Virus record (IMG/VR): IMGVR_UViG_2531839477_000018
DNA: 37,133 nt
Strand: one strand, 5' to 3'
Source of the DNA: a virus
Taxonomy: Duplodnaviria; Heunggongvirae; Uroviricota; Caudoviricetes
Made by a program: the position numbers and the translations under genes. The notes under the pieces were generated by a model, which did not search any database, was not told where the DNA came from, and was given only the letters and a program-made list of their open reading frames with translations. Position 1 is the stretch's first letter. Each line of letters begins with the position of its first letter. Below are positions 15,317 to 37,133 of the stretch, piece by piece.

Positions 15317-15339
15317 TAAGACAAAGGAGCAAATTTTTT

Positions 15340-16392: not shown

Positions 16393-16437
16393 TCAACCCA
16401 CGGCGGGCATCATGCCCGCCTGTAACGGAGAGAACAA

Positions 16438-17238: not shown

Positions 17239-17330
17239 CGACTGACCCCGTCAGCGGGCGGCGTGCGCGGTGTTCCGGTTTGACTCCGTGACCGTTTACA
17301 CCGCGCACCCACCGCCCGATTTTTTCAGGA

Positions 17331-18034: not shown

Positions 18035-18036
18035 CA

Positions 18037-21311: not shown

Positions 21312-21314
21312 ATC

Positions 21315-22211
21315 ATGCCTGCCGTTGACCTTTCACAGTTACCGGAACCCGCCATCATCGCGGAGCCTGACTTTGAGGCAATTCTGGCTGACACAAAGGC
21401 CATGATGATTGCGTCCTATCCCGCCGAACAGCGTGAAGCCGTTTCCGCCGCGCTGGAGCTGGAATCGGAACCCCTTAACGTTATCGCTCAAACCATGTCG
21501 TTTCGTGAAATGCTGTTACGCCAGCGGGTCAATGAGGGTGCACGCGCCTGCATGCTAAGCCACAGCGCCGGGACAGACCTGGACAACCTCGCGGGCAATA
21601 TGAACACAAAGCGCCTGGTTATCACTCCGGCAACGGATACCACCGACGCGGTGATGGAGAGCGACACCTCGCTGAGACTGCGGGCGCAACGGGCGTACGA
21701 CGGCCTGAGTGTTGCTGGCCCGTCAGGTGCATACGAGTATTTTGCCCGCAGCGCCAGCGGTCTGGTGCGTGATGCGCGGGCTATCAGTCCGTCTCCGGCA
21801 AATGTGACGGTTTCCATCCTGTCCACTGAAGGCGACGGCACAGCAACGGAGGCGTTGCTTAATACCGTTCGCGCCGTTCTGAATGCAGAGGATACCCGCC
21901 CGGTGGCCGACCGCCTGACCGTACAGAGCGCCAGCATCGTGACATGGCGGCTGAATGCAAAACTGTACTTTTACCCCGGCCCGGAATCCGAACCTATTCT
22001 GGCCGCGGCTGAATCGTCATTCAGGAAGTGGCTGGCTGAACAGGGGCTTATCGGTCAGGACGTGGCGTTGTCCGCCATTGCTGCCGCACTGCATGTGCAC
22101 GGTGTGCAACGCGTGGAGATAATCGAACCTACACAGAATATGGCCATCAGCGACATACAGGCGGCGCGCTGTGAGTCATTCACCATCAGCGAAGGTGGAC
22201 GCAATGAGTAA
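21315..22211 (+). CDS. J: Baseplate protein (P2 gpJ-like)
   Basis: 298-aa ORF; synteny. Confidence 0.8.
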   Translation: MPAVDLSQLPEPAIIAEPDFEAILADTKAMMIASYPAEQREAVSAALELESEPLNVIAQTMSFREMLLRQRVNEGARACMLSHSAGTDLDNLAGNMNTKRLVITPATDTTDAVMESDTSLRLRAQRAYDGLSVAGPSGAYEYFARSASGLVRDARAISPSPANVTVSILSTEGDGTATEALLNTVRAVLNAEDTRPVADRLTVQSASIVTWRLNAKLYFYPGPESEPILAAAESSFRKWLAEQGLIGQDVALSAIAAALHVHGVQRVEIIEPTQNMAISDIQAARCESFTISEGGRNE

Positions 22212-22734
22212 TTCGTTGTTACCACCATCAGCCAGCAATTTCATGCGTTGTGCCGAAGCCGTCGGAACACGCATTACAGACATTCCGGTAGACCTCAACA
22301 CGCTGTGGTCGCCGGACACCTGCCCGGTGCATCTGCTGCCTTATCTCGCCTGGGCGTTTTCCGTTGACCGCTGGGATCGCAACTGGCCGGAAGAGACAAA
22401 GCGACAGGTTATTCGTGATGCATGGCTGATACACCGACACAAGGGAACCATCAGCGCACTGCGCCGGGCCATTGAGCCGCTGGGATACCTCATTCGTGTG
22501 TCTGAGTGGTGGGAGTTCGGCGGAGAACCGGGAACATTTACCGTTGAAGTGGGCACGCTGGACAGTGGCGTGACGGAGGAAATGTATCTGGAAATGGAGC
22601 GGTTGATTGCTGATGCCCGCCCGGTCAGCCGCCACATGACAGGGCTGAATATCATTCAGGAGATCCCGGGAGATATTTTCGCGGCGGCAGCAACTTACGA
22701 CGGTGAAGTCATTACCATTTATCCGGACGATTAA
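22204..22734 (+). CDS. I: Baseplate protein (P2 gpI-like)
   Basis: Start at MSNSLLPP overlapping J stop; 176 aa; precedes tail fibre. Confidence 0.75.
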   Translation: MSNSLLPPSASNFMRCAEAVGTRITDIPVDLNTLWSPDTCPVHLLPYLAWAFSVDRWDRNWPEETKRQVIRDAWLIHRHKGTISALRRAIEPLGYLIRVSEWWEFGGEPGTFTVEVGTLDSGVTEEMYLEMERLIADARPVSRHMTGLNIIQEIPGDIFAAAATYDGEVITIYPDD

Positions 22735-22736
22735 GC

Positions 22737-24902
22737 ATGAGTACCACAACACGAAAATTTAAAACCGTTATCACCGATACGGGTGCCAAAAAATTAGCTC
22801 AGGCAGCCGCGCCAGATGGTAAGCCTGTCCGCCTGACTCATATGGCCGTGGGCGACGGTGGCGGTACATTGCCCACACCAGACAGTAAGCAGACCCGTCT
22901 GGTGCATGAGGTGTGGCGACATACTGTTAATCGCGTCTTCCTGGACGCAACACATCAGAACCGCATTATTGCGGAGCTGGTTATTCCTCCTGAAACGGGC
23001 GGATTCTGGATCCGGGAAATTGGTGTATTTGATGAGCACGGCGATTTGATCGCGGTTGGCAATACAGCCGAAAGTTACAAGCCAACCGTTGCCGAAGGGT
23101 CAGGACGTGCACAAACATTTCGCACCATTCTGACCGTCTCCAGCACTGCCACTGTGGCGCTTACCGTGGATAACACCATGGTTATGGCCACAGTGGATTA
23201 CGTGAATGACAAACTGAAAGAACATGAACAGTCACGACGTCACCCGGACGCCTCGCTGACCGCAAAAGGCTTTGTTCAACTCAGTAGCGCCACTAACAGC
23301 GTGTCTGAAACGCAGGCTGCAACGCCGAAAGCAGTAAAGGCCGCATATGATCTTGCTAAAGGTAAATATACTGCGCAGGATGCCAGCACGACGCGAAAAG
23401 GCCTTGTCCAGCTCAGTAGCGCCACCAACAGCACGTCTGAAACACTGGCCGCGACATCGAAAGCGGTTAAGGCGGTAATGGATGAAACGAACAAGAAAGC
23501 GCCCTTAAACAGTCCTGCGCTGACCGGAACGCCAACAACGCCAACTGCGCGACAGGGAACGAATAATACCCAAATCGCAAGCACGGCTTTCGTTATGGCT
23601 GCGATTGCCGCCCTTGTAGATTCGTCACCTGACGCACTGAATACGCTGAACGAGTTAGCGGCGGCGCTGGGAAACGACCCGAATTTTGCGACCACCATGA
23701 CTAACGCGCTTGCGGGTAAGCAACCGAAAGATGCCACCCTGACGGCGCTGGCCGGGCTTGCTACTGCGGCAGACAGGTTTCCGTATTTTACGGGGAATGA
23801 TGTCGCCAGCCTGGCAACCCTGACAAAAGTCGGGCGGGATATTCTTGCGAAATCGACTGTTGCTGCCGTTATCGAATACCTCGGTTTACAGGAAACGGTA
23901 AACAAGGCTGGTAACGCCGTCCAAAAGACAGGCGATATCTTGTCCGGTGGGCTTACTTTTGAAAACGACTCAATCCTTGCCTGGATTCGGAATACTGACT
24001 GGGCAAAGATTGGTTTTAAAAATGATGCCGACAGCGATACTGATTCATACATGTGGTTTGAAACAGGCGACAACGGCAATGAATATTTCAAATGGAGAAG
24101 CCGCCAGAGCACCACAACAAAAGACCTGATGAATCTTAAATGGGATGCTTTGTATGTTCTTGTTAAAGCTCTTTTCAGCCGTGAAGTAAAAATATCGACA
24201 GTCAATGCACTGAGGATATTTAATTCATCTTTTGGTGCTATTTTTCGCCGTTCTGAAGAATGCCTTCATATCATCCCTACCCGAGAAAATGAGGGGGAAA
24301 ATGGCGATATAGGGCCACTACGCCCCTTTACGCTTAATCTCAGAACTGGTCGCATAACTATGGGGCATGGTCTGGATGTTACAGGAGATATATTTGCAAA
24401 CCGTTTTTTAATTAACAGCAGTACAGGCATGTGGATTCATATGCGTGACCAGAACGTTATTATGGGACGTAATGCGGTATCCACTGATGGTGCTCAAGCT
24501 TTGCTTCGTCAGGACCATGCCGACCGCAAATTTATGATTGGCGGTCTGGGAAATAAGCAATTTGGCATCTACATGATTAATAATTCAAGGACAACCAATG
24601 GCACCGATGGTCAGGCGTACATGGATAATAACGGGAACTGGCTTTGCGGCTCGCAAGTTATTCCCGGCAACTATGGCAATTTTGATTCCAGATATGTGAA
24701 AGATGTTCGACTTGGTTCACAGCAATATTATGGAGTGAACAACTGGCAAACATGGAATTTCCAGTGCCCGTCAGGTCATGTATTGTCTGGTATTAATGTT
24801 CAGGATACAGGGTCCAACTCTGCCGATAATATAGCGGGCGTTTATTACAGACCCGTTCAAAAGTATATAAATGGCACCTGGTATAATGTAGCGAGCGTTT
24901 AA
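22737..24902 (+). CDS. H: Tail fibre protein (P2 gpH-like); constant N-terminal part to about 23894, variable C-terminal part 23895-24902 in the expressed orientation
   Basis: 721-aa ORF with internal ~30-aa tandem repeats ([11 protein letters not shown].. / [11 protein letters not shown]..); recombination site embedded at 23869-23894. Confidence 0.85.
23869..23894. repeat. Invertase crossover site, left (gix/hix-like), inside the tail-fibre gene
   Basis: TTATCGAATACCTCGGTTTACAGGAA; inverted partner at 26941-26966; matches the Gin/Hin site pattern TTATC..AAACC-TC-GGTTTACAGGAA. Confidence 0.8.
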
Positions 24903-24903
24903 T

Positions 24904-25431
24904 ATGATGCACTTAAAGAACATAAAAGCGGGTAACGCTAAAACACTGGAACAGTATGAGTTAACAAAGAAACACGGAGTTATCTGGCTTTACTCTGAGG
25001 ACGGAAAAAACTGGTATGAGGAAGTGAAGAACTTTCAGCCAGACACAATAAAGATTGTTTACGATGAAAATAATATTATTGTCGCTATCACCAGAGATGC
25101 TTCAACGCTTAATCCTGAAGGTTTTAGCGTTGTTGAGGTTCCTGATATTACCTCCAACCGACGTGCTGACGACTCAGGTAAATGGATGTTTAAGGATGGT
25201 GCTGTGGTTAAACGGATTTATACGGCAGATGAACAGCAACAACAGGCAGAATCACAAAAGGCCGCATTACTTTCCGAAGCGGAAAGCGTTATTCAGCCAC
25301 TGGAACGCGCTGTCAGGCTGAATATGGCGACGGATGAGGAACGTGCACGACTGGAGTCATGGGAACGCTACAGCGTTCTGGTCAGCCGTGTGGATACGGC
25401 AAATCCTGAATGGCCACAAAAGCCTGAATAA
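24904..25431 (+). CDS. G: Tail fibre assembly chaperone (P2 gpG-like), expressed orientation
   Basis: 175-aa [17 protein letters not shown].. immediately after H. Confidence 0.8.
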
Positions 25432-25459
25432 AAATTAAGGCCCGCTATCGGGCCTTGTC

Positions 25460-25993
25460 TCATTCAGGTTGTTCGGGAAATGTTACTGGCAGGCTGGAGG
25501 TGTCTGTAGATTCGACTTTCTGCGCATAGAGCATCCACTCGGTTAATTTTTGTTTATTCTCGTCGGAAATGATGCCCAGCCGTAGCTGTGAGTCCCATAG
25601 CTGGGTTTTATCCCTGACAAGTTGCAACAGGCTTTGCTTTTCATTCTCTGCCTGCTGCCTCTGTTCCTCCTCGGTATAAGTTCGCTTTATCACTACGCCA
25701 TCTTTGAACATCCATTTACCCGAAATATCAGCCCAGCGATTTGCTGTAATATCAGGAACCTCAACGACGCTTGCGCCTTCTGGATTAATTGCTGAAACAT
25801 CCTTTTCAATACAAATAATAACGCCGTTGTAGTCATAGACCATTTTCAACGTATCAGTCTGGAAATTCTTTTGTTCCTCATACCAGTTTTTTCCATCCTC
25901 TGTATAAAGCCATTTGATGTTAAATTGTTTCGTTAGCTGGTATTGCTCTTTTGTTTTAGGGTTGCCAGCTGTAATATTTTTTAAGTGCATCAT
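25460..25993 (-). CDS. Alternative tail fibre assembly chaperone (G'), silent orientation
   Basis: 177-aa ORF MMHLKNITAGNPKT.. paralogous to G, on the opposite strand inside the invertible segment. Confidence 0.75.
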   Translation of the reverse strand: MMHLKNITAGNPKTKEQYQLTKQFNIKWLYTEDGKNWYEEQKNFQTDTLKMVYDYNGVIICIEKDVSAINPEGASVVEVPDITANRWADISGKWMFKDGVVIKRTYTEEEQRQQAENEKQSLLQLVRDKTQLWDSQLRLGIISDENKQKLTEWMLYAQKVESTDTSSLPVTFPEQPE

Positions 25994-25995
25994 AA

Positions 25996-26940
25996 TTAAA
26001 TACTCCCCGCGTTATACCACGTTCCATTAATGCAATACTGAATTGGCCTTGCCTGTGTTGTATCAATTAATTCATCACGGTTTCCGTTAACTGAACCCGT
26101 AACGACATAACCTGACCTGTCAGACCAGCCGGGACCATTCCATGTCTGAACAGATGACAGACCGCCAAGACGAATACCTGTAATAAACCTTGAGTTACAT
26201 TCTGCCTGCGTATATGCACCAACATCTCCCGCTGATGGCTTACGTGTTGTGGTGTAAATTTCTGACCAGTCAGCTTCGAATCCGTAACCATCACGCGCTG
26301 AACGATAAAAAATACCGCCGTTCCTGTAATTCACACGGAACTGTACGGCAGGGCAACTCCCCGTATTCATATTGAAGTGGAGGATTAATGTCGATGCGCC
26401 ACCAATATTTGCGTTATAGACCCCGCTATTCCAGTTCCAGCCAACAGCTTTATCATTTCCGACAGTGCTTCCTGTTTGCCCTAAAGCAAATGCAGGCTGC
26501 TGGTTTTTCGTGTTGTAGTCTCGTCGCCAGCCAGGAGCATAAGCATCACCATGATTAATATAAGTGAATTGAGCGTTAGTGATTCCGCCACCGCTGGACG
26601 TGCTCGGCGTGGTAACACGTATGGTCATTGCGCCGCGAGTGCCAATAACTTCCACCACAGCACCTGCAAGACAAATATTTCCGCAACCTGTATCTGTAAT
26701 GACCTTATTATTTGCATAAGCCCATGAGCCTTTGCACATCCAGTAAGGATGGTTAAATGCCCCCTGACTCTCCAGCCACGAAATAAATTGCACAGTTGTC
26801 CAGACCTGACTATCGCCACCAATATCCACCCATGCGCTATATGCGCGACAGGCCCCAATATTTTTGGTGAAGGTATCTTTTCCCGGAATATCTGCGCCGT
26901 TCTGGTTTTTCTGTAATGCGCCAGAAGCCTGATTTACCGT
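25996..26940 (-). CDS. Alternative tail fibre variable C-terminal segment (H'), promoterless, fused to the constant part only after inversion
   Basis: Minus-strand frame is open from the right crossover site and stays in frame with the H constant region across the site (..[14 protein letters not shown]..); ORF-track 25996-26829 is its Met-initiated tail. Confidence 0.65.
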   Translation of the reverse strand, partial: TVNQASGALQKNQNGADIPGKDTFTKNIGACRAYSAWVDIGGDSQVWTTVQFISWLESQGAFNHPYWMCKGSWAYANNKVITDTGCGNICLAGAVVEVIGTRGAMTIRVTTPSTSSGGGITNAQFTYINHGDAYAPGWRRDYNTKNQQPAFALGQTGSTVGNDKAVGWNWNSGVYNANIGGASTLILHFNMNTGSCPAVQFRVNYRNGGIFYRSARDGYGFEADWSEIYTTTRKPSAGDVGAYTQAECNSRFITGIRLGGLSSVQTWNGPGWSDRSGYVVTGSVNGNRDELIDTTQARPIQYCINGTWYNAGSI

Positions 26941-26966
26941 TTCCTGTAAACCGAGGTTTTAGATAA
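26941..26966. repeat. Invertase crossover site, right (gix/hix-like)
   Basis: TTCCTGTAAACCGAGGTTTTAGATAA, reverse complement of the left site apart from flank mismatches; ~55 bp upstream of the invertase gene. Confidence 0.8.
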
Positions 26967-27020
26967 TGGCCGTTTCCGGCCTGCATGGCATGATTTGCGC
27001 TTTTGGACGGGAGATTCAGC

Positions 27021-27608
27021 GTGCTGATTGGCTATGTAAGGGTATCAACAAATGACCAGAATACAGACCTGCAACGAAACGCTCTTGTTTGTGCAGGATG
27101 TGAACAAATATTTGAAGATAAATTAAGCGGGACAAAGACAGACCGACCGGGATTAAAACGCGCTTTAAAGCGCCTTCAAAAAGGTGACACGCTGGTTGTC
27201 TGGAAACTGGATCGCCTCGGGCGAAGCATGAAACATCTGATTTCTCTCGTCGGGGAACTACGGGAGCGAGGGATTAATTTTCGCAGTCTGACCGACAGCA
27301 TAGATACATCTTCTCCAATGGGGCGTTTTTTCTTCCACATGATGGGTGCCCTGGCTGAAATGGAACGTGAATTAATTGTTGAACGTACACTGGCCGGACT
27401 GGCGGCAGCGCGCGCACGGGGGCGCACAAGCGGACGTCGACCGAAGCTGACAAAAGAACAGCATGAGCAAATAGCAAGGCTGATCAAAAACGGGCACGAC
27501 AGAAAACAACTGGCAATAATTTACGGCATTGGTATATCGACGATTTATCGTTACCACCCCGCAGGAGAATCAAGCGGAACAATTGAGAAGAGTCAGGAAA
27601 CAAAATAA
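27021..27608 (+). CDS. Serine site-specific DNA invertase (Pin/Gin/Hin/Cin family)
   Basis: Probable GTG start giving ..LIGYVRVSTNDQNTDLQRNAL.. (catalytic Ser in VRVST); closely resembles E. coli e14 Pin as recalled; C-terminal HTH; ORF-track start 27003 is an upstream in-frame ATG. Confidence 0.9.
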   Translation: MLIGYVRVSTNDQNTDLQRNALVCAGCEQIFEDKLSGTKTDRPGLKRALKRLQKGDTLVVWKLDRLGRSMKHLISLVGELRERGINFRSLTDSIDTSSPMGRFFFHMMGALAEMERELIVERTLAGLAAARARGRTSGRRPKLTKEQHEQIARLIKNGHDRKQLAIIYGIGISTIYRYHPAGESSGTIEKSQETK

Positions 27609-27636
27609 CCGCTAATCTGGCCATTAGCGGTTTTTG
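27608..27636. terminator. Hairpin terminator between invertase and U (possibly bidirectional)
   Basis: ACCGCTAAT-ctggcc-ATTAGCGGT perfect 9-bp stem followed by TTTTT. Confidence 0.5.
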
Positions 27637-27643
27637 TGTTAAA

Positions 27644-28138
27644 TCAGAACAGCCCTTTAACTGAACTGGCCGCACTGTTAAGAGATGATGTCACCTTATC
27701 TTTGAAGCCGGACAGCATATCGCTGAATGATGAGGATTGCAGGCGCTCCCGCAAATCCTCATCACAGCGTTCAAGGGTCAGTGAAAATTCTATCTTTTTC
27801 GCCTTACCGTAGCGATCAAACTCGGAACGGGTCGTATTCGTTTCAGTCAGCACATACATGCCGTAAATCTGCCCGACACCATCAATCAGAGGCCAGGGGC
27901 GTCCTGTATATGCCTGCGTGGTCAGCAACGAAAGCGACACTTCGCCACCTGTAATTTCAGGATAAAGCACGCCGGAAAGCACAATGCGATCATCACCTGC
28001 ACCGATATACTGCCAGCTTGCTGAACGGTTAACGCGTTCATTTTTCACATGCCGCCAGCTTTTGTTTTGCTGTAACTGCTGATGCGGCAGTGTGCGCAGC
28101 TCAAAAACAAACATGCCGTAGATCATCATCATGGCCAT
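27644..28138 (-). CDS. U: Tail protein (P2 gpU-like)
   Basis: 164-aa ORF; remembered similarity to P2 U (..SWRHV.ND.RV.RSA..QY.G.G.D.I.LSG.LYPE.TGG.VSLSLL..); last gene of the T-U order on the minus strand. Confidence 0.8.
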   Translation of the reverse strand: MAMMMIYGMFVFELRTLPHQQLQQNKSWRHVKNERVNRSASWQYIGAGDDRIVLSGVLYPEITGGEVSLSLLTTQAYTGRPWPLIDGVGQIYGMYVLTETNTTRSEFDRYGKAKKIEFSLTLERCDEDLRERLQSSSFSDMLSGFKDKVTSSLNSAASSVKGLF

Positions 28139-28144
28139 GACTCC

Positions 28145-30988
28145 TCAATCTTTATCGTAAAAACTGCCACGCCCGGCACGGGCGCGCCGTTCCATTTCTG
28201 CCCTGACCATTTCACCGACCAGTTTCGCCAGTTCGCGGGGATTCTGCGTAACAACGTTATGCAGATGAACATGAATTTCACCACCAAATCCGGAGGCAAC
28301 AGGCTCCCGGTTACGGGAAGTTACAGGAACTGATGCCACTGGCGATCGTATGGCCTCCGCCACCGGGCGGGAGCTGGCCGCAACAACAGGGACCAGCGCC
28401 GGAGGCAGCGGAGCCGGGACTACGGGTGTGATATTAATTGCGGGGGCAGGCTTACTGACCTGCGCAATCTTCCGCTCCTGCCACTCCCCACGAACAGCAA
28501 GTGCGCGGGGCAGGTTCTTAAAGACAATATCGCCGGGGCCAATGCGTTTTTTCGTCTCATCAACCAGCTTACCTGTGTTATCAGCAATTTTGCTGAGTCT
28601 GCGCAGCGTCCCGGTATTGCTGTCTGTGAGCGGTTTGTTGTCTTTGGGGTTATCACCTCCGGTGCCATTGCCATTTTCCACAGGCTTCGGCGGATTGATT
28701 TTCGCCAGGTCCCCCTGAAGCAAGGCAACCTTGTCCTGAAGAATGGCCGCACGCTGTGCGTCTTCGATTTTCTTGCGCGCCCTTTCCGCTTCATCCGGAA
28801 GGACGCCAAGTTTTTCAAGTATCCACGCCAGCGTATCCAGCAGCATTTTTGCAGGTGTCAGAACAAGTTGTAACGCACCGCCAAGAACGTTACCGAATAT
28901 CTCGCCAGCACTGGTACATTTATCCAGCGTTTCCTTGCTGGACTCCATCGGTGACAGCAGCGATTTAAAACAGTTAAACACCTGGCTGATCCCGCTTCCG
29001 ATTGCGTCAAAAACAGGGCCAAACCGTTCAAAGGTTTCAAGCAACGGGTTCAGCCTTTCCATAATCCCGCTGAACACCCCGGCAAAAAATGCCCTGATGG
29101 GATCCCAGTATTTCCAGATAAGAACGGCAGCTCCGGCAAGCGCAGCCACGATAAGACCAACGGGACTGAACAGCGCCCCGATAGCGCCTCCCAGCAAAGA
29201 AACGGAACCCGTCACCATTCCCCACAGCGCAGGCAACACCCTGACGACATTCATTGACCGGGTAAGAATGTCAAAACCAAGACGCAGGGTGGCCAGCTTC
29301 CCGTAAAGCACCCCAATAACCAGCGACAACGAGCCAATCGTTGCAGTCATTGCCAGCAACGCACCGCCTGCTATCAGTAGCTGGCGCGTCAGTACCGGAT
29401 GGGCCTGCGCCAGCGAGGTGATTTTTTCAAGCACCCGCGTGAGCCACTGCGTGACAGAACGCAGCGGACCGTCAACCAGATCACTGATGCGAATACGAAG
29501 ACCTTCCCATGCGCTGTCGAGATTTTTCAGGTCCCCATCAAGATTATCGGCCATTACTTTTGCAACGCGATCGGCCTCTCCCCTTGCCCCCTGCAATTCT
29601 CTGGTCAGTTTTTGCAGCTCTCCCGAACCAGCCGCCGCAACAAGCGTCTGCAAACCAACGAACGCCTCTTCTCCGGCGATGTCCTTGAAGAAGGAGACCT
29701 GGTCCACCTGTCCGTATTTTTGTGTCGCCTTATAGAGATCAAGCAGCACATCCTCCATCGGGCGCATTTTGCCTCTGGCGTCAGCAACTGACACCCCCAG
29801 CTCTTTCAGTGCATCAGCCGCAGCTTTTGGCGGTGATGCAAGGCGGGACAGACTTGCGCGCATGGCCGTGCCAGCATCGCTTCCGCGAAGACCATTATTG
29901 GCAAGCATCCCGGCCATGGCCGCCGCTTCTTCAAGACTGATACCAAGTTTTGCGGCAACCGGACCGGTATACTTCATGGTTTCGCCCAGCGAGCGTAAAT
30001 CAGTATTGGTCCGGGTAAATGCTGCTGTCAGCGTATCGCCCACCCGGCCCATTTGATCGGCTGTCAGGTTGAACTGTGTGAGGATATTGGAGCCTATATC
30101 AGCCGTCTCGCCGAGTTCGACGCCACCTGCCAGCGCCATATTAAGAACACCGGGCAATGCGGCCTGAATGGCCTGCGGAGTAAAACCAGCCATTGCCAGA
30201 AAGCTCTGCCCACTGGCGGCATCACTCGCAGTAAACTGTGTTTCAGAGCCAAGTTTTAACGCCTGCTCACGCAGCGCCTTAAACTGCGGGCTGTTTTTGT
30301 CGATTCGCGTCAGTGCCTGAACGCGGGACATCTCTTTGCCGAACCCGATCGCAGGCTGCAAAAAACGCCCGGCAGCATAGCCGCCCGCCACTGCCGCACC
30401 AGTTGCCAGCGCACCACCTGTTTTCAGTTTTCCAGCGGTTTCCTGCGCACGCGAATACCGCTCACGCGCCCGCGTTACACGCGCAAGCGCCTGCCGTTCG
30501 CGTTCAAGCTGGTTGTTGTATTGTTCGGTGCGTCTGATAGCCTGCTGGATGGTGTTATCGCTGCCTGTCAGGGAAATGCCGTGGCGTTTCAGTTCTCCGC
30601 CAAGCTCCCGCATTTTCTGAATTTCCCGTGTGCGCGATTCATTCAGGCGTTCAAGCCGGGTGCTTAACTGCTGCATCAGCTTTTGTTGTTTTTCGCTGAG
30701 CACTGTACCCGTGCGTTGTAACTGATTAAGGGCGTTAAGCTGGCGTCGTGCTTTCACGATACCCGCATCCGCTTTACTGACAGCGTCGCGGGCGCGCTCA
30801 AATGAACGCGCCTGACGCTCGAGATTTTTGATCGCCCCCTGCGTTCGCTGGATGGAGTCACCAAACTGCCCCATCAGGCGGCGGGCGTTTTCGGCAGGCC
30901 GGGTCAGCCTGTCAACGGCGCTGAAAGCGACCCGGATATCAAGAGTCTTCATTGTCTGCACTCCCGCTGCGAAGTGCCGCCCGCTCAC
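28145..30988 (-). CDS. T: Tail tape measure protein (P2 gpT-like)
   Basis: 947-aa ORF, Ala/Gly-rich with long helical N-terminal part and TM-like central segments; downstream of E/E'. Confidence 0.85.
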   Translation of the reverse strand: MSGRHFAAGVQTMKTLDIRVAFSAVDRLTRPAENARRLMGQFGDSIQRTQGAIKNLERQARSFERARDAVSKADAGIVKARRQLNALNQLQRTGTVLSEKQQKLMQQLSTRLERLNESRTREIQKMRELGGELKRHGISLTGSDNTIQQAIRRTEQYNNQLERERQALARVTRARERYSRAQETAGKLKTGGALATGAAVAGGYAAGRFLQPAIGFGKEMSRVQALTRIDKNSPQFKALREQALKLGSETQFTASDAASGQSFLAMAGFTPQAIQAALPGVLNMALAGGVELGETADIGSNILTQFNLTADQMGRVGDTLTAAFTRTNTDLRSLGETMKYTGPVAAKLGISLEEAAAMAGMLANNGLRGSDAGTAMRASLSRLASPPKAAADALKELGVSVADARGKMRPMEDVLLDLYKATQKYGQVDQVSFFKDIAGEEAFVGLQTLVAAAGSGELQKLTRELQGARGEADRVAKVMADNLDGDLKNLDSAWEGLRIRISDLVDGPLRSVTQWLTRVLEKITSLAQAHPVLTRQLLIAGGALLAMTATIGSLSLVIGVLYGKLATLRLGFDILTRSMNVVRVLPALWGMVTGSVSLLGGAIGALFSPVGLIVAALAGAAVLIWKYWDPIRAFFAGVFSGIMERLNPLLETFERFGPVFDAIGSGISQVFNCFKSLLSPMESSKETLDKCTSAGEIFGNVLGGALQLVLTPAKMLLDTLAWILEKLGVLPDEAERARKKIEDAQRAAILQDKVALLQGDLAKINPPKPVENGNGTGGDNPKDNKPLTDSNTGTLRRLSKIADNTGKLVDETKKRIGPGDIVFKNLPRALAVRGEWQERKIAQVSKPAPAINITPVVPAPLPPALVPVVAASSRPVAEAIRSPVASVPVTSRNREPVASGFGGEIHVHLHNVVTQNPRELAKLVGEMVRAEMERRARAGRGSFYDKD

Positions 30989-31468
30989 GCCAGCTAACCA
31001 CTTCGCCGGGCGTCATCATGAAGATTTCGGCGGGCGACCAGTTAAAAATAACGGCAATATCTGCCACAAAGTCTTCTATGTGCTCAAAGCACACAACCGT
31101 GATCAGGCTTCCGTCGCCTGTTCGTTCTTCCCGCCAGAGTCCGCACCGCTCAAAAAATTTACGGCAACCACACATAACTGAATAAAGTCACGGGATGCCA
31201 TTTTTTTGATCGTCACTTCATCCAGTCGCGGTGATGTCACGCGTGACAGCAGCGTAAACATGGATTCCGCTTTCAGATTCAGCACATCAGACAGCGACAA
31301 ATCTCGCAGAGATCCAGCCTGCTCAATAGCTCCGGTGATCTCCACATACGTGATTTTTTCGCCGCCTCGCTCAATTGGTTGGGTAAGTTTTACGCCACGC
31401 TCACTGGTTTCTTTCACAGTGTCAGCAACGACCGTGTTTTCGGTATCGATGTTTTTCGTCTCTTTCAT
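30939..31468 (-). CDS. E: Tail assembly chaperones E and E+E' (programmed -1 frameshift product)
   Basis: E frame 31103-31468; E' frame 30939-31175 overlaps it; slippery heptamer TTTTTTG on the minus strand at 31151-31157 lies in the overlap, as in P2 E/E'. Confidence 0.7.
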
Positions 31469-31522
31469 CAGGAAACTCCTTTCAGTCAGAGGCGACGCAC
31501 TGCGCCGCCTGCATATTACTTA

Positions 31523-32035
31523 TCAGCCAAGCCCGAGCGCGGAACGGATGCGATCGGGCACAATGTCCTTGCCGTCCTTCCGGTAAATGAAGTTCAGCAG
31601 GTCAATCTCCCACAACGGGCGATCGTTAACACTCAGCTTGTAATAGGTGTTTTTAATGGCGTAAGTGTGTGATGTGGCTTCGCCCTGTTTGGCTTCCCCC
31701 ATATCAATTTCCGTCACACGTCCGCGCATTTCGACTTCATACAGGTCGCTTTCTGCATCGGTGTAGTATTCACCCGCAAAACGCAGCAGCGTGCCGTCAA
31801 TCGTGCCGCCATACTTAAGGAACAGCTCACGAACTGCGCCCCCCATGACAAAGCTCGCATCAAGCGCGGAGTCGTCCAGACCGAGATCAATACTTACCGC
31901 ACCCATCATGCCGCCCCCCCGGTAGCTGTCGGTTTTGCGCGTCAGTTTGGGCAGAGTGACGGACGTCACCTTACCCACTTCGTTTTCACCATCCACAAAC
32001 AGCGTAAAAAAGCGAAGATGTTTTGGCACAGCCAT
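31523..32035 (-). CDS. FII: Tail tube protein (P2 gpFII-like)
   Basis: 170-aa ORF directly after sheath gene; size and order match. Confidence 0.85.
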   Translation of the reverse strand: MAVPKHLRFFTLFVDGENEVGKVTSVTLPKLTRKTDSYRGGGMMGAVSIDLGLDDSALDASFVMGGAVRELFLKYGGTIDGTLLRFAGEYYTDAESDLYEVEMRGRVTEIDMGEAKQGEATSHTYAIKNTYYKLSVNDRPLWEIDLLNFIYRKDGKDIVPDRIRSALGLG

Positions 32036-33219
32036 CAGGCACCTCCCAGCACCGCAAATGCGGGTTCAAAGTATTCATCAGTAAACGTCTGGTAAAGCTC
32101 CATGTCTTCCAGTGGCGGAACGGGCGTATATTTGTAGCGAATACGCACACGCCCCTGACGTAAATCCGTGGTGCTGTTATCCACCACGTCATACCAGCAC
32201 TCCGCGCCAATCAGTTTCCCGGCAGTAACCAGTGAGTCCAGTTTTGCCCTGATGGCACTGATAACATCCTTCACGTTCGCAGGCGTCAGTGGACTGTCGA
32301 TGGTTTCAAACTGCGCTTCCGCAATTGAATCAGCCAGCACCTGTGCGGTTCGGGTATACACCTCAAAGATGTAGGCGTTCGTTTCCGGTGTGCGGTTGCC
32401 CCAGAAGCGGAACCCGTTGCGACGAATAATGGTCGTGATTTCTTTGTTGTTGAGGCTGTTGGCATCGCTGTCTTCGGCCTGCAACGACCAGAACACATGC
32501 CTCGACATCCCCAGCACATTTTTAACCGGAACGTTGGACAGTGATTTGTGCCAGCCCTGCTCATGGTCAATGTACGCACGAAGGCCGCACGCATAGGCAG
32601 GCGCGGGGAACGTTTCGTTTTTGCCACTTTTCGGGTTGTAGGCAATGAAGTCAGGCCATAAGAGCATCACCTCACGTTCGTTGAATTTCTGGCGGTAGGT
32701 AATCGCCTCAGCCATCGTGTTACAGCCGTGACATGAGGCATACACAAACGCGCGCAATTTACCCGCAATCACGCACAGGGATTTTGTCACCGCCTCCGTA
32801 TCCAGCTCCGGCGCGGCCAGAATACGCGGACGGTATCCGATGCTTTCATCCTGCTCTGCAACAAGCAGCGCATACATCCCCGTATAGCTGCCGTCATCCT
32901 CAGAACCACCGATAACCAGTTGATCCTGCGTCTTTCCGTCTTCTTCTTTGTGTTCAGCCACGCGAACGACGATCACCTTTGTGCTCACCTGGTCTGCGAT
33001 GGCCTTAAGCGCACGATAAAGCGTCCCCGTTGTTCCGCATTTTCCCAGCACGTCATTGACGCGGGTCAGCAGTGTGGGCTTGTTCAGCGGGAACAGCTTC
33101 GCGTCCGCATCATCCGCCGTTGCCACGATACCGATAACGCTGGAATCAACATCGTTAATCGCTGTTACCAGGTCGGTATTTTCCGTAACACGGGCACCAT
33201 GAAAACGAGTTTCACTCAT
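32035..33219 (-). CDS. FI: Tail sheath protein (P2 gpFI-like)
   Basis: 394-aa ORF with remembered similarity to P2 FI (..FPLNKP.L..V.......GTL...L.AIADQ..); overlaps FII start. Confidence 0.85.
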   Translation of the reverse strand: MSETRFHGARVTENTDLVTAINDVDSSVIGIVATADDADAKLFPLNKPTLLTRVNDVLGKCGTTGTLYRALKAIADQVSTKVIVVRVAEHKEEDGKTQDQLVIGGSEDDGSYTGMYALLVAEQDESIGYRPRILAAPELDTEAVTKSLCVIAGKLRAFVYASCHGCNTMAEAITYRQKFNEREVMLLWPDFIAYNPKSGKNETFPAPAYACGLRAYIDHEQGWHKSLSNVPVKNVLGMSRHVFWSLQAEDSDANSLNNKEITTIIRRNGFRFWGNRTPETNAYIFEVYTRTAQVLADSIAEAQFETIDSPLTPANVKDVISAIRAKLDSLVTAGKLIGAECWYDVVDNSTTDLRQGRVRIRYKYTPVPPLEDMELYQTFTDEYFEPAFAVLGGA

Positions 33220-33376
33220 AGCTTCAGCCCCTTGTATCCGTTAAATGATTCAGCAACAATCATCACCCACCACGCGCGTAATCTCACCCCTGCGCTATTC
33301 TCCCGCCATGGCGACAACAAAAAGCAGTAACCCACTCCGCACGCACATGCGACCATGCCGCACAGGGAGGGAACAG
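33220..33376. promoter_or_regulatory. Divergent control region between FI (leftward) and D (rightward)
   Basis: 157-bp spacer flanked by divergent start codons; must hold promoters for both units; no canonical TGT-N12-ACA box found by eye. Confidence 0.35.
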
Positions 33377-34486
33377 ATGACCGACACCACCATGCAATTG
33401 CTCAGTCAGGGCACAGACCCCGTGAAAATGCCGGATTTTGATATTCTCGCGGAGGGTAAAACGCTGTCCGGCGTGGCAGAGCGCCTGATGAGCCTGTCGC
33501 TGACCGACAACCGGGGATTTGAGGCGGACCAGCTCACCATCACGCTGGATGATGCCGATGGCCAGTTGCAGCTACCGCCACGGGGCGCGCGTCTGACGGT
33601 TCTCATTGGCTGGAAAGGGGAACCGCTGACAGAAAAAGGCACTTACATTGTTGATGAAATCGCTCACGAAGGACCGCCGGACAGGCTGACTGTTTCAGCC
33701 AGAAGCGCAGATTTTCGGGATGAATTTAACGTTAAACGTGAGGTGTCCTGGCATGATGTGACCGTTGAGCGTGTGGTATCCGCCATCGCTCATCGGTACG
33801 GTCTGAAACCGCAAATCAGCGAAATGCTGATGGATATCGAAATCGACCACGCCGACCAGACCGAAGAAAGCGACATGTCCTTTCTTACGCGCATGGCGGA
33901 AATGCTGGGCGCAATCACCACGGTAAAAAGCGGTAATCTGTTATTCATTATGCCAGGCGGTGGCGTGAACGCACAGGGCCAGCCGTTGCCATCGTTCGCC
34001 ATCACGCGCAGCAGTGGCGATCGCCATCAGTTCCGCATTGCTGACCGCGAAGCGTATACGGGGGTACGCGCTTACTGGCTTGATCTTAATTACGGGAAAA
34101 AGAAAAAAGTCAGCGTGAAACGCCGCAAACCGCCAAAACCCAAAAAGGAGAAAAGCAGCAGCCGTGAAGGTGATTATATGGAAGGTGCGGAAGGCAATGT
34201 GTTTGTGTTACGCAAGACTTATCAGAACGAGCAGGCAGCAAGACGCGCAGCGGCGGCAAAGTGGCAACAACTACAACGCGGAGCCGCATCATTCTCCATC
34301 ACGCTGGCACGTGGACGAGCAGAACTCTACCCCGAAATGCATGGCACGGTAACAGGATTTAAAAGCGAGATTGATAATCAGGACTGGATTATTGCAAAAG
34401 CCGAGCACACCATTGATAACAGCGGCTTTACCACGCAGCTTGAGCTTGAGGCAAAAATCCCGGAATGGATAGCGGAAACAGAGTGA
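33377..34486 (+). CDS. D: Tail protein D (P2 gpD-like)
   Basis: Start at MTDTTMQLLSQG with GGGAGG RBS 7 nt upstream; the ORF-track start at 33245 adds a low-complexity leader that is probably not translated. Confidence 0.8.
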   Translation: MTDTTMQLLSQGTDPVKMPDFDILAEGKTLSGVAERLMSLSLTDNRGFEADQLTITLDDADGQLQLPPRGARLTVLIGWKGEPLTEKGTYIVDEIAHEGPPDRLTVSARSADFRDEFNVKREVSWHDVTVERVVSAIAHRYGLKPQISEMLMDIEIDHADQTEESDMSFLTRMAEMLGAITTVKSGNLLFIMPGGGVNAQGQPLPSFAITRSSGDRHQFRIADREAYTGVRAYWLDLNYGKKKKVSVKRRKPPKPKKEKSSSREGDYMEGAEGNVFVLRKTYQNEQAARRAAAAKWQQLQRGAASFSITLARGRAELYPEMHGTVTGFKSEIDNQDWIIAKAEHTIDNSGFTTQLELEAKIPEWIAETE

Positions 34487-34528
34487 GCAACTTAGAATAG
34501 CGGCAGCACCACGTTAAAGGAGGTCGCT

Positions 34529-34789
34529 ATGTTCCGTTGTCCGCTTTGTGGCGCATCTGCCCGTATCCGCACCAGTCGTCCGGAAAATGATTCAAACACC
34601 GTGCGGCAAAAGTATTACCAGTGTAACAACCTGGAATGCGGCGTATGCTTCTCAACACTGGAAGCTTTCCATAAATTCACATCGAAACACGCCTCCGGCG
34701 TTCACTCATCAGAAGGTATCCCGTGGCATGAGCTGCCAGCTTCACACAGGGGAAACAATCAGATGAGTTTGCCTTTACCTCAGAATTAA
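34529..34789 (+). CDS. ogr: Late gene transcriptional activator, Ogr/Delta zinc-finger family
   Basis: MFRCPLCGASARIRTSR...YYQCNNLECGVCFST matches the P2 Ogr pattern MFHCPLC....RTSR...YHQC.N..C...F (four Cys zinc finger); last phage gene. Confidence 0.85.
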   Translation: MFRCPLCGASARIRTSRPENDSNTVRQKYYQCNNLECGVCFSTLEAFHKFTSKHASGVHSSEGIPWHELPASHRGNNQMSLPLPQN

Positions 34790-34978
34790 CAGGCAGAATT
34801 GCCGGAGTAACAAAAAAGCGATAGATTACGTGCGGGTGCCTTTCGGCTGATGGTCGGAGGGAATACCCGAAGGCCGGATGTGGAAAGGCCCCGGAAAACA
34901 TTTCTGTTTAACCGAGGCCCTAACCCGTCAACCTAGCAAGTGATAGGTTAGCGCCTCTCCAACAAAGGAGCAAGCGCT

Positions 34979-35119
34979 ATGTCGCAAAAATCGCTTACGG
35001 CCATCACGTTCTGCGTGACGGTAATCCTCATCATCTGGATGCTGCACGGTTCGCTGTGTGAAATACGGATGAGCTTCTGGGGAGCGGAGTTTGCGGCGTT
35101 CTTACAGTGTAAGCAGTAA
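34979..35119 (+). CDS. Hok/Gef-family small membrane toxin (46 aa), not in the ORF track
   Basis: MSQKSLTAITFCVTVILIIWMLHGSLCEIRMSFWGAEFAAFLQCKQ: N-terminal TM helix and C-terminal LCEIR...AAFL signature of Hok/Gef; AAGGAG RBS 8 nt upstream; structured leader and hairpins around it. Confidence 0.65.
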   Translation: MSQKSLTAITFCVTVILIIWMLHGSLCEIRMSFWGAEFAAFLQCKQ

Positions 35120-35207
35120 GGAAACCGCGACGGGGAGGCAACTCCCCGTCAATCGGTTGCCGGGGTAAGGCCGATAAGGCACCCTATCTCATAGGCATGA
35201 ATAACAA

Positions 35208-35240: not shown

Positions 35241-35308
35241 GGAACTCTCACTAGCTAGTGAGCCGTTAACTGCACATAATGCTCGCACAACAAATCAGTT
35301 AAAAGAGA

Positions 35309-35704
35309 TTACTCAGCATTCTCCTGCTTCCATTGCCGGATCATTTCATCGGTAACATCACTTTCATAACATACCACGTCATACCCTCCAGTACGGCTAT
35401 ATGCACTGCGTCCACCACATCTACTACCATTCCTTGCATGATTATACGGACACGCACAATTGCCTGGATAAGATTCAATGGATTCTTTAATTATTTCTTT
35501 CTTGATCTGAGCATCTGACTTTCCTGTTGCTGCATACCCACTAAAAGATACCAAACAAAGGCAGATTGCCATTAATAAACCACATCGCATACCGATACAC
35601 TCTATTACTAACCAATCATAGCCCACATCATAAAATCGAGATGAGGAGTACAACACCTTTAACAAGAAGGTGCCATCACGATAATATGCCGTGCAATTCA
35701 TCAA
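35309..35704 (-). CDS. Hypothetical cysteine-rich secreted protein
   Basis: ORF with internal signal-peptide-like segment (MRCGLLMAICLCLVSFSGYAATG) followed by a Cys-rich ~70-aa region; weak RBS at either candidate start (35704 or about 35590); AT-rich surroundings. Confidence 0.35.
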   Translation of the reverse strand: MMNCTAYYRDGTFLLKVLYSSSRFYDVGYDWLVIECIGMRCGLLMAICLCLVSFSGYAATGKSDAQIKKEIIKESIESYPGNCACPYNHARNGSRCGGRSAYSRTGGYDVVCYESDVTDEMIRQWKQENAE

Positions 35705-35840
35705 AAAAAAGATCTATATCAAAGAGATAGAGTTATTATCAGTGCTGCAGACATCAGCATTCGAGGCAGCAGAAAGACAGTAAATCTAACGAATTTGTCT
35801 TTTTCTCAGGATGTTGTCAGATTAAAAAAGATAGAGTAGC

Positions 35841-35925
35841 GCAGACACCTTTTGGTGGATGGTAGGAGGAAAAATGAAGTTGAGTGGGAAGATCCCAGAA
35901 AAAACTTTGGTTTAACCAAGGCCCT
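35841..35925 (+). repeat. Degenerate second copy of the hok-type leader (imperfect direct repeat of 34841-34925)
   Basis: ~70-75% identity over ~85 bp with the leader upstream of the hok-like gene, including a short mok-like leader ORF; no intact toxin ORF follows. Confidence 0.4.
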
Positions 35926-36063
35926 AGTTCAATATGCGAAATGCAGATGAGTTGCAGGAGAGTTTTGCTTCACCCTTAGAGTTTAAACAGACGTGTACTA
36001 TCATTATTTCTGCATATCGCCACACCATCGCCACTTTACCGCCATTTAACAAAATACAAATAC

Positions 36064-36087
36064 AAAAAAACCACCCGAAGGTGGTTT
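36064..36087 (-). terminator. Rho-independent terminator of the glyW-cysT-leuZ operon
   Basis: Minus-strand AACCACC-ttcg-GGTGGTT hairpin followed by TTTTTTT, just downstream of leuZ. Confidence 0.6.
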
Positions 36088-36130
36088 CACGACACTGCTT
36101 ATTGCTTTGATTTTATTCTTATCTTTCCCA

Positions 36131-36217
36131 TGGTACCCGGAGCGGGACTTGAACCCGCACAGCGCGAACGCCGAGGGATTTTAAATCCCTTGTGTCTACC
36201 GATTCCACCATCCGGGC
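36131..36217 (-). tRNA. leuZ: tRNA-Leu (anticodon UAA)
   Basis: Reverse complement reads GCCCGGATGGTGGAATCGGTAGACACAAGGGATTTAAAATCCCTCGGCGTTCGCGCTGTGCGGGTTCAAGTCCCGCTCCGGGTACCA, 87 nt with CCA end. Confidence 0.95.
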
Positions 36218-36229
36218 TCGGGAAGAAAG

Positions 36230-36303
36230 TGGAGGCGCGTTCCGGAGTCGAACCGGACTAGACGGATTTGCAATCCGCTACATAACCGCTTTGTTAACGC
36301 GCC
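36230..36303 (-). tRNA. cysT: tRNA-Cys (anticodon GCA)
   Basis: Reverse complement reads GGCGCGTTAACAAAGCGGTTATGTAGCGGATTGCAAATCCGTCTAGTCCGGTTCGACTCCGGAACGCGCCTCCA, 74 nt. Confidence 0.95.
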
Positions 36304-36357
36304 AAATTCTTCAGGCCTTTCAGCCAGACATCCGCTTGAGGCCGATGTCTTTTAAAC

Positions 36358-36433
<76 letters not shown>

Positions 36434-36584
36434 ATTCATCAAGCAATCAGTTAATCACTTGATTTTATTATCGTCTGGCAATCAGTGCCGCCGTTCGATG
36501 CGTTGCATTCTACTTACCTGGCGCGATGAGTCAACGATATTTTTCACCACTTTTGATCGTTTGCTGAAAATTGCGCCGAAACGA

Positions 36585-37133
36585 TCACTGATCAAGCAAA
36601 TCTGCACGCGCAGCGCTCAAATATTGCAACATTGACCACAGAGTCAGTACCGCAGCCACAAAGAAAAGTGCAATACCGGCGTACTCAACCCAAATGTTCG
36701 GACGCCACAGCAGCCAGGCCAACGCCACCATCTGGGCAGTGGTTTTCACTTTCCCAATCCAGGAGACAGCCACGCTACTGCGTTTACCCAACTCCGCCAT
36801 CCATTCGCGTAGCGCAGAAATAATAATTTCACGGGCGATCATCGTTGCCGCCGGTAGGGTCACCCACCAGCTGTGATAATGCTCGGTTACCAGCACCATG
36901 GCGATAGCCACGAGAACTTTATCTGCTACAGGGTCAAGGAAAGCACCAAACCGGGTACTCTGGTTCCAGCGGCGTGCCAGAAAACCATCGAACCAGTCAG
37001 TCACCGCCGCGACGCAGAAAATGAGCGCGGCGGCAAACGGCGACCAGGTGACAGGCAGATAAAAGACCAATACAAAGAATGGGATAAGGATGACACGGAA
37101 CAGTGTAAGCAACGTAGGGATATTAAATTGCAT
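36585..37133 (-). CDS. pgsA: CDP-diacylglycerol--glycerol-3-phosphate 3-phosphatidyltransferase
   Basis: 182-aa [30 protein letters not shown].. with the CDP-alcohol phosphotransferase motif D-G-x2-A-R...D-x3-D (..[19 protein letters not shown]..); conserved E. coli neighbourhood pgsA-glyW-cysT-leuZ; start is the last codon of the window. Confidence 0.95.

Follow-up and report, generated by a model that had tools for sequence, protein, structure and literature searches.

By comparison with its relatives, the inverted tail block of the window (the whole stretch of phage DNA analysed, 37,133 nucleotides) follows an order of genes that is normal for a large group of P2-like prophages and is not the product of a recent event. 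The explanation we favour, at a probability of about 0.9, would be a single ancient inversion whose gene order became fixed across a clade, with a promoter shared via an Ogr box and with the neighbouring invertase cassette as a separate and later acquisition. The inverted arrangement can be seen in many annotated public genomes; it goes unmentioned in the papers on P88 (PMC5285337), SEN4/5 (PMC5261728) and phiSM (PMC6456863), in the global survey of P2-like diversity (PMC13100340), in the paper on Burkholderia P2-like phages (PMC3091744) and in the papers on Xenorhabdus tailocins (PMC13280938, PMC8855722).

Gene content and orientation of the tail block

The genes of the block and its immediate surroundings were assigned as follows.

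27021-27608, plus strand: Gin/Cin-type serine DNA invertase (Pfam Resolvase and HTH_7; PHROG DNA invertase; 98% identical to the P88 invertase)
27607-27632, no strand: two-way intrinsic terminator hairpin in the gap between the invertase gene and U (10-pair stem, T-run on both strands)
27644-28138, minus strand: gpU tail protein, last gene of the inverted operon (Pfam Phage_P2_GpU; 99% identical to P88, 46% to P2)
28145-30988, minus strand: gpT tape measure protein (PHROG tape measure; 94% identical to P88, 33% to P2)
30939-31157, minus strand: E' extension via a predicted -1 frameshift at TTTTTTG (31151-31157; slippery heptamer and open -1 frame)
31103-31468, minus strand: gpE tail assembly chaperone (PHROG 103 tail protein; 32% identical to P2 E)
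31523-32035, minus strand: gpFII tail tube (Pfam Phage_tube)
32035-33219, minus strand: gpFI tail sheath, first gene of the inverted operon (Pfam sheath domains, Phage_sheath_1; 99.7% identical to P88, 46% to P2)
33220-33376, no strand: FI-D spacer of 157 bp, putative bidirectional Ogr-dependent late promoter region
33377-34486, plus strand: gpD, baseplate hub protein, divergent from FI (Pfam Phage_GPD; identities of 97-99.7% with D of Xuanwuvirus and 48% with D of P2)
34529-34789, plus strand: ogr, Ogr/Delta-type zinc-finger late activator, CX2C-X24-CX4C (Pfam Ogr_Delta, 52 bits)

H, G, the invertase gene, D and ogr are encoded on the plus strand, and U, T, E/E', FII and FI on the minus strand (27644-33219), the block from FI to U amounting to 5576 bp. 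Phage_sheath_1, Phage_tube, Phage_P2_GpU and Phage_GPD all scored above the Pfam cut-offs, and homologues of a P2-like contractile tail are therefore present. The canonical F operon has FI-FII-E-T-U-D colinear on one strand; in the window FI to U lie on the minus and D on the plus strand. The initial annotation had described the block as flipped relative to P2 with its gene content and internal order intact, and both points held: the strands of all genes were as described, the P2 annotation has FI-FII-E-T-U-D-ogr colinear behind pF, and the Pfam and PHROG assignments bear out content and order. It was also right that FI and D diverge over 157 bp (33220-33376), that D, separated from pF, would require a promoter of its own and that U ends 35 bp from the invertase gene at a common hairpin. 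With the stop codon of the invertase gene ending at 27608 and that of U lying at 27644-27646, the gap is 35 bp, and the hairpin at 27607-27632 was scored as a terminator in both directions.

P2 has these genes in the same internal order, and so do 186, Fels-2 and Cartapus; in these phages the F operon FI-FII-E/E'-T-U-D lies behind pF. Like P2, the window has TTTTTTG as the site of the E/E' frameshift, D is followed by a gene for an Ogr-type activator, and upstream of FI there is a candidate box of the TGT-N12-ACA type (TCT in the window). The E' frame is open from this P2-type slippery site to approximately 30939 on the minus strand, so frameshifting is predicted, and a small CDS equivalent to E' is present in the P88 annotation. 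Unlike P2, the window has FI to U flipped and D split off as a divergent transcription unit of its own, and its S and V genes overlap, leaving no separate pV spacer. Protein identities between the window and P2 range from 32 to 54%. The block was considered as a foreign module, which was rejected: the distance of its proteins from P2 is like that of the other late proteins (identities of 32-47% and 38-54%, respectively).

Relationship to P88

From nucleotide and protein comparisons, the window is a P88-like phage of the genus Xuanwuvirus in the Peduoviridae. Positions 24900-34800 align to P88 in one megablast piece with 95.3% identity, and over the whole window the alignment to P88 covers 84% of the length with 95.35% identity, which corresponds to a similarity of approximately 80%. 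By ICTV convention, a genus unites phages whose nucleotide similarity to the type phage is about 70% or more across the genome; at about 80%, the window belongs to the same genus as P88 and probably to a different species. Gene order and strands from H to ogr are identical to the window in P88 and the other Xuanwuvirus phages (P884B11, 500465-2, PhiR44_2, Chuche and Citrobacter phiSM), the 157-bp FI-D spacer and the terminator hairpin are the same, and the late proteins are 94-100% identical. Differences were found elsewhere: the first ~3 kb of the window (integrase/immunity) and the last ~1.9 kb have no match in P88, the integrase is only 39% identical to that of P88 but 56-57% identical to the integrases of Fels-2 and Cartapus, and H is 86% identical to P88 H. 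Some members of the Xuanwuvirus type (Chuche and a Salmonella prophage) have no invertase cassette.

Distribution of the inverted arrangement

The layout is the same in P88 and in every other Xuanwuvirus record, and it was also found in five other lineages of the Peduoviridae, namely Novemvirus (phiT5282H), Reginaelenavirus (3LV2017), Reipivirus (ST16-OXA48phi5.4), Senquatrovirus (SEN4/SEN5) and Serratia phage KSP20. In the phage collection, which contained 48 records with a D protein of at least 60% identity, FI and D were adjacent and on opposite strands in every listed record with a D at least 63% identical. The checked records with a D of at most 53% identity, that is P2, Fels-2, Cartapus, vB_YenM_42.18, ENT90 and ST437-OXA245phi4.1, were colinear. 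The same division was seen in species-representative bacterial genomes: all 62 loci with a D at least 61% identical, from more than 25 genera of Enterobacterales, were inverted, and all 18 loci with a D at most 53% identical were canonical. Of 5426 complete E. coli genomes, 1358 (about a quarter) had a contiguous FI-D junction and 621 a contiguous invertase-U junction; more than ten phage records likewise carry the block junctions. Only one orientation was seen among relatives with a D at least 61% identical, with no sign of switching. The initial annotation had proposed a comparison of the orientation across relatives as a check; all close relatives share it, as expected of a stable lineage arrangement, and promoters are predicted from sequence conservation in the spacer.

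Origin of the inversion

Neighbour-joining trees were calculated for D, which lies outside the block, and for FI, which lies inside it. Both were built from tblastn segments and rooted on P2, and in both the inverted loci, a set that includes four degraded loci, were monophyletic in 100 of 100 bootstraps. More distant outgroups (Pseudomonas Dobby, Mannheimia phiMhaA1, Vibrio MAR and Burkholderia KS5) are colinear. Since the inverted loci form one clade and the outgroups are canonical, we infer the polarity and a single, old origin of the inversion. The event would have taken place in the common ancestor of the clade, with its ends upstream of pF and at the U/D boundary, and would have been inherited since. 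It would have brought the pF promoter with its Ogr-binding box next to D, and where the invertase gene or G, read rightward, meets U, read leftward, the two-way terminator would close both ends. The Gin-type invertase with the invertible fibre segment would be a separate, much later import that happens to adjoin the block.

P2-like phages are mosaic, and exchange could account for part of the spread of the FI-U-D-ogr module, which would then not have been strictly vertical. In the extreme form of this idea the arrangement is old, but FI-U together with D-ogr travelled as a mobile tail module between P2-like phages that are otherwise unrelated, with no vertically inherited clade behind it. The mosaicism speaks for it, as do the integrase of the window, at 39% identity to that of P88 despite late genes that are 94-100% identical, and the fibre cassette, which was clearly exchanged with Mu and P1. 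However, the FI tree and the D tree each recover the inverted set with full bootstrap support, and in the full genomes examined other late proteins follow the same relationships, J, W and V being about as similar to those of SEN5 and the Klebsiella phages as the tail genes are. We therefore regard it as improbable, and with or without exchange of modules the arrangement would be typical of the module and its origin single.

If the single ancient inversion is correct, it is a shared derived character of a deep subgroup of Peduoviridae that extends across the Enterobacterales. Gene order serves as a reliable marker that splits a deep clade (Xuanwuvirus, Novemvirus, Reginaelenavirus, Reipivirus, Senquatrovirus and relatives) from phages of the P2, 186 and Fels-2 types. 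As a rearrangement the inversion carries little weight: a very common group of prophages has this layout as its standard.

The invertase and the fibre cassette

The invertase gene belongs to a cassette that lies to the left of the block.

23869-23894, minus strand: left-hand gix site, within H, bounding the invertible tail-fibre segment (26-nt gix, 2 mismatches; 0 matches expected by chance)
24949-27400, plus strand: Mu/P1-type G-segment cassette with G, G', an alternative H' C-terminus and most of the gin-like gene (94.2% nucleotide identity to Mu; 94-95% to D108 and P7)
26941-26966, plus strand: right gix site TTCCTGTAAACCGAGGTTTTAGATAA (gix sequence match)

The invertase most likely starts at the GTG at 27021 (MLIGYVRVST..., as in the P88 annotation) rather than at the TTG at 27003. 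The segment 23869-26966, which has gix sites and alternative fibre ends and is accompanied by a Gin-like invertase, is a genuine representative of the Gin-Cin systems known from the Mu G and P1 C segments, with ~94% identity to Mu. The 5.6-kb tail block is outside the system: its ends have no gix and its orientation is invariant in relatives. The two gix sites flank the tail-fibre segment and not the block. No further gix-like site was found in the whole window, in agreement with the earlier observation that there is none at the block ends. A search for inverted repeats, suggested with the initial annotation for the two junctions, found none pairing the block ends at 27.6 kb and 33.3 kb; the only feature at the junctions was the terminator hairpin.

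An invertase was present in only seven of the 62 inverted loci. Most inverted relatives are without one, among them SEN5, phiT5282H and a Salmonella prophage whose D is 99% identical and in which G directly abuts U; the G-segment cassette is missing from the closest invertase-less relatives. Judged by these comparisons, the invertase cassette is a recently imported module. Its identity of ~94% to Mu makes it far younger than an arrangement common to phages with 61-80% identity in D.

The initial annotation had read the block as a recent, clean in-place inversion in the genome of the window and had raised a role for the adjacent serine invertase. Such an event, possibly by the Gin-type enzyme acting on secondary sites, might be suspected from the mere 35 bp between the invertase gene and the block, and serine invertases can use pseudo-sites. 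Nevertheless, this is very improbable. The same junctions are present in P88, in all other Xuanwuvirus records, in the five further lineages, in all 62 loci and in the 1358 E. coli genomes, so that the orientation is the same throughout close relatives, both phages and bacterial loci; 55 of the 62 inverted loci do without an invertase, the cassette is far younger than the arrangement, and neither block end has a gix-like site or an inverted repeat. Misorientation of the 5.6-kb block during assembly, which had also been considered at the outset and for which, apart from the general possibility, only the position of the block ends in short intergenic regions could be adduced, is the least probable of all, since both junctions recur in independent complete genomes (FI-D in 1358, invertase-U in 621) and in isolated phages, the work of many laboratories, with more than ten phage records carrying them, the block ends have no repeats that might mislead an assembler, and the conserved regulatory architecture of the FI-D spacer makes sense in the present orientation only. 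For annotators and for genome scans it follows that neither the layout nor the adjacent invertase is a sign of recent recombination or misassembly.

The FI-D spacer as a putative late promoter region

The consensus of P2 late promoters is TGT-N12-ACA (PMC3931495). The exact motif matched four times in the window, which is below chance, and none of the matches was in a late spacer; therefore, a box with one mismatch, TCT in place of TGT, was sought. This gave the following candidate elements.

14391-14408, no strand: matching candidate box in the divergent P-O (terminase/scaffold) spacer, with AGATTA at -40 to -35 and CATCAT at +53 to +58
33259-33264, minus strand: predicted -10 hexamer of pFI, GATGAT, with a predicted start at ~33252 (conserved block at -40 to -35 from the box start in 51 spacers)
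33299-33316, no strand: candidate Ogr-type activator box TCTCCCGCCATGGCGACA (TCT-N12-ACA), followed by ACAAAAAGC (pattern match and conservation)
33351-33356, plus strand: predicted -10 hexamer of pD, GACCAT, with a predicted start at ~33363 (conserved block at +52 to +57 from the box start in 51 spacers)

In the window, the 25-nt pattern TTCT-N12-ACAACAAAA is restricted to two sites, one in each of the divergent late spacers FI-D and P-O; the pattern was derived from these two sites and the count is not independent of them, the independent test being conservation across phages. T(G/C)T-N12-ACA was kept in 50 of 52 unique spacers of relatives, 78.5-88.5 nt from the FI start codon, and the spacers of SEN5, KSP20 and Kp4871-3 contain the exact TGT-N12-ACA. 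A third box-like match, inside T (28867-28886), was treated as chance. The -10-like hexamers are weak (GACCAT 3/6, GATGAT 4/6) and are located ~48.5 nt from the box centre on either side, the predicted starts ~55.5 nt from it. A consensus scan of the FI-D spacer revealed no sigma-70 promoter, which is compatible with activator-dependent promoters but does not prove them.

P2 offers a precedent: pP and pO are annotated with a single activator site (3057-3087), and their starts lie 56 and 55 nt from its centre. Like pP/pO, the FI-D spacer of the window has one central candidate box between divergent genes and no -35 consensus, and the predicted distance from start to box centre, ~55.5 nt on both sides, is nearly that of P2; box and hexamers are at the same positions in the P-O spacer of the window. 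The box differs from that of P2 by its TCT, and the FI/D pairing of promoters, whose function is predicted from sequence, is without counterpart in P2. An Ogr_Delta protein is encoded downstream of D, and Ogr, bound once at the mid-spacer box, would drive FI to U leftward and D, possibly with ogr, rightward. Thus, Ogr at a single box plausibly serves FI-U and D from the 157-bp spacer in the manner of P2 pP/pO, and the promoter problem of D appears to be solved by the conserved Ogr-type box with its symmetric -10-like hexamers. The case would illustrate why an inversion need not be harmful: through a symmetric activator site, D, although cut off from its operon, would make use of the promoter region carried along with the block. 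We lean, with some reserve, towards the wider proposal that the spacer is a minimal bidirectional late promoter, that the whole late regulon is served from two box-bearing divergent spacers (P/O and FI/D) and that the inversion is a derived character marking the clade. Only two spacers with a candidate box are evident in the window, compared with three activator sites in P2.

Gene content and strand order of the late region

Gene calls, PHROGs and Pfam identified the window as the genome of a P2-like temperate phage with the following layout:

Left end of the window, integrase
Minus strand, Q and P
14480-25431, plus strand, O through G
Between G and the invertase, invertible fibre segment
27021-27608, plus strand, Gin-type invertase (Pfam resolvase family)
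27644-33219, minus strand, the block of U, T, E/E', FII and FI
33377-34486, plus strand, D (Pfam GPD)
34529-34789, plus strand, ogr (Pfam Ogr_Delta)

The family assignments for the genes of the block, D, ogr and the invertase are firm. All Pfam matches (sheath, tube, GpU, GPD, Ogr_Delta and resolvase) exceeded the cut-offs and the tape measure protein was named by PHROGs. Furthermore, the E gene contains a P2-type slippery site, TTTTTTG, at 31151-31157, where the -1 frame is open, and the protein encoded just 3' of D is an Ogr_Delta zinc-finger protein (CX2C-X24-CX4C). As described in the initial annotation, the block lies on the minus strand and D and ogr on the plus strand, and the block is inverted relative to P2, whose annotation is colinear. 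The distances given there, 157 bp for the FI-D spacer and 35 bp for the invertase-U gap with its hairpin, were exact; the hairpin (27607-27632) has a terminator score on both strands.

The inverted order is shared by a large prophage clade

The inversion had been regarded as an event in this genome, or else as a possible assembly artefact. Alignment with relatives argues against both. Nucleotides 24900-34800 matched Escherichia phage P88 (Xuanwuvirus) in one megablast piece with 95.3% identity and with identical strands in the P88 annotation; the overall alignment covered 84% of the window (95.35% identity). The D and FI proteins were then used as queries against a phage collection, with comparison of positions and strands. 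The collection contained 48 records with a D of at least 60% identity. In every listed record whose D was at least 63% identical, FI and D were adjacent and divergent; among these are Xuanwuvirus (all records), Novemvirus (Enterobacter phage phiT5282H), Reginaelenavirus (Klebsiella phage 3LV2017), Reipivirus (Klebsiella phage ST16-OXA48phi5.4), Senquatrovirus (Salmonella phages SEN4 and SEN5) and Serratia phage KSP20. In SEN5, Kp4871-3, Kp4847-1, phiT5282H, KSP20 and ST16-OXA48phi5.4, annotation or tblastn verified the complete U-T-E-FII-FI / D-ogr layout. P2, Fels-2, Cartapus, vB_YenM_42.18, ENT90 and ST437-OXA245phi4.1, with D at most 53% identical, are colinear.

A D alignment was used to scan species-representative bacterial genomes, and the 80 loci that it yielded were typed by tblastn. 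The block was inverted in all 62 loci with a D at least 61% identical, and the canonical order was found in all 18 with at most 53%. The inverted loci span more than 25 genera of Enterobacterales, including Salmonella, Serratia, Erwinia, Pantoea, Klebsiella, Yersinia, Xenorhabdus, Photorhabdus, Providencia and Morganella. The orientation is, therefore, lineage-typical and not recent. Of 5426 complete E. coli genomes, 1358 have a contiguous FI-D junction and 621 a contiguous invertase-U junction, so that an artefact is excluded for practical purposes. The window has a block order that is ordinary, ancient and typical of a clade of very common prophages.

Some records in these searches deserve mention. 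Contig NZ_JBQPOM010000071.1, labelled Vagococcus sp. WN89Y, carries a prophage whose D is 96-98% identical to that of the window; Vagococcus is Gram-positive, and the assembly is probably contaminated or mislabelled. In the P88-like prophages NC_049344 (520873) and NC_049341 (503458), IS100 (IS21-family) insertions are found in the tail gene region and the sheath and D matches are split; both are likely defective copies. Virions of Citrobacter phage phiSM were reported to have siphovirus-like, non-contractile tails (PMC6456863), but a complete sheath, tube and baseplate set is encoded in its genome (OR565851), which has 93% identity to this region, so that morphology and gene content do not fit.

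Age and origin of the inversion

Two neighbour-joining trees, one of D (outside the block) and one of FI (within the block), were rooted with P2; in each, all 100 bootstrap replicates united the inverted loci in a single clade. The distant relatives Pseudomonas phage Dobby, Mannheimia phiMhaA1 and Burkholderia KS5 are colinear, as is the non-Peduoviridae Vibrio phage MAR, and therefore the inverted state is derived; the inversion appears to be one old event. Identity to P2 was 32-47% for block proteins and 38-54% for other late proteins. Because the block is as diverged from P2 as the other late proteins, it was presumably flipped in place in an ancestor, and replacement by a foreign module was rejected on the same grounds. 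U and D abut or overlap in canonical phages (P2 annotation), which places one breakpoint exactly at the U/D boundary; the other would lie upstream of the promoter pF.

The adjacent serine invertase had been suspected to be involved. However, an invertase lies beside U in only 7 of the 62 inverted genomic loci and is absent from SEN5, phiT5282H and the Klebsiella phages, although their block is inverted. In a Salmonella prophage with a 99% identical D, G directly abuts U and homology to the window starts at the U stop codon. The initial annotation had found no gix-like site at the block ends; indeed, the only gix sites in the window are at 23869-23894 and 26941-26966, and a search for inverted repeats pairing the two block junctions also found none. 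The cassette at 24949-27400, which comprises G, G', the alternative end of H' and the greater part of the gin-like gene, has ~94% nucleotide identity to the Mu, D108 and P7 G/C segments, indicating recent import; some relatives that are nearly identical elsewhere lack it. It has the appearance of a host-range module that was exchanged recently, whereas the block order is common to phages with D proteins just 61-80% identical. The invertase is a bystander, unrelated to the block inversion.

A predicted bidirectional promoter between FI and D

The proposal that D requires its own promoter was correct. A scan of the FI-D spacer found no sigma-70 consensus promoter. The spacer contains TCT-N12-ACA followed by ACAAAAAGC (33299-33316), a predicted site for the late activator Ogr. 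A 25-nt pattern, TTCT-N12-ACAACAAAA, has exactly two matches in the window, one here and the other at 14390-14414 in the divergent P-O spacer. This pattern was built from those two sites themselves and, therefore, conservation across relatives is the independent test: T(G/C)T-N12-ACA was kept in 50 of 52 unique relatives' FI-D spacers, 78.5-88.5 nt from the FI start codon, and SEN5, KSP20 and Kp4871-3 have exactly TGT-N12-ACA, the consensus for the four Ogr-dependent late promoters of P2 (PMC3931495).

Alignment of 51 unique spacers on the box revealed two -10-like hexamers conserved amid otherwise diverged sequence, one toward FI (-40 to -35 from the box start; ATaaTc, read GAttAT toward FI) and one toward D (+52 to +57; aA.caT). 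Both end 48.5 nt from the box centre, which predicts starts 55.5 nt to either side of the centre, in the window at ~33252 (minus) and ~33363 (plus). In P2, a single annotated activator site (3057-3087) serves pP and pO, whose mapped starts are 56 and 55 nt away from the centre of the site, and the hexamer offsets in the P-O spacer of the window equal those in the FI-D spacer. The most economical reading of these sequences would be a bidirectional FI/D promoter with a shared box: the inversion would have put the symmetric Ogr site of pF beside D, D would then have gained a -10 element mirroring that of FI in position, and the outcome would be a second late promoter of the pP/pO kind. Deposited annotations plainly show the inverted arrangement, which went uncommented in publications on P88, SEN4/5, phiSM, global P2-like diversity, Burkholderia P2-like phages and Xenorhabdus tailocins; only the putative shared-box promoter is mildly new.

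A conserved GC-rich run (CGCGCG) lies between box and hexamer, in the window on the FI and P sides (33271-33278 and 14373-14382) and in most relatives' spacers on the D side (+41 to +47 from the box). Unlike in P2, S and V overlap (20383-20386) without a separate pV spacer. Since only two box-bearing spacers are evident in the window (14391-14408 and 33299-33316), O through G may be a single late transcript of ~11 kb. Besides, a sigma-70-like site, GTAACA-18-GATAAT (34349-34378), within the 3' end of D and ~150 bp upstream of ogr, is equivalent in place to the ogr promoter of P2 and is a candidate ogr promoter.

Lysogeny region and cargo genes

Nucleotides 1-3027 and 35241-37133 have no match in P88. 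The integrase is 39% identical to that of P88 and 56-57% to those of Fels-2 and Cartapus, which suggests that the integration and immunity module was swapped relative to P88. By colinearity, the ORF at 9175-10134 is the counterpart of P88 gp17, annotated as plasmid segregation protein ParM, and is followed by a partition protein, an unusual cargo for an integrating P2-like phage. Just downstream of ogr, P88 is annotated with a hok/gef-family (MokW-like) host-killing peptide (34928-35068), and the equivalent stretch is present at ~34980-35120 in the window, again by colinearity.
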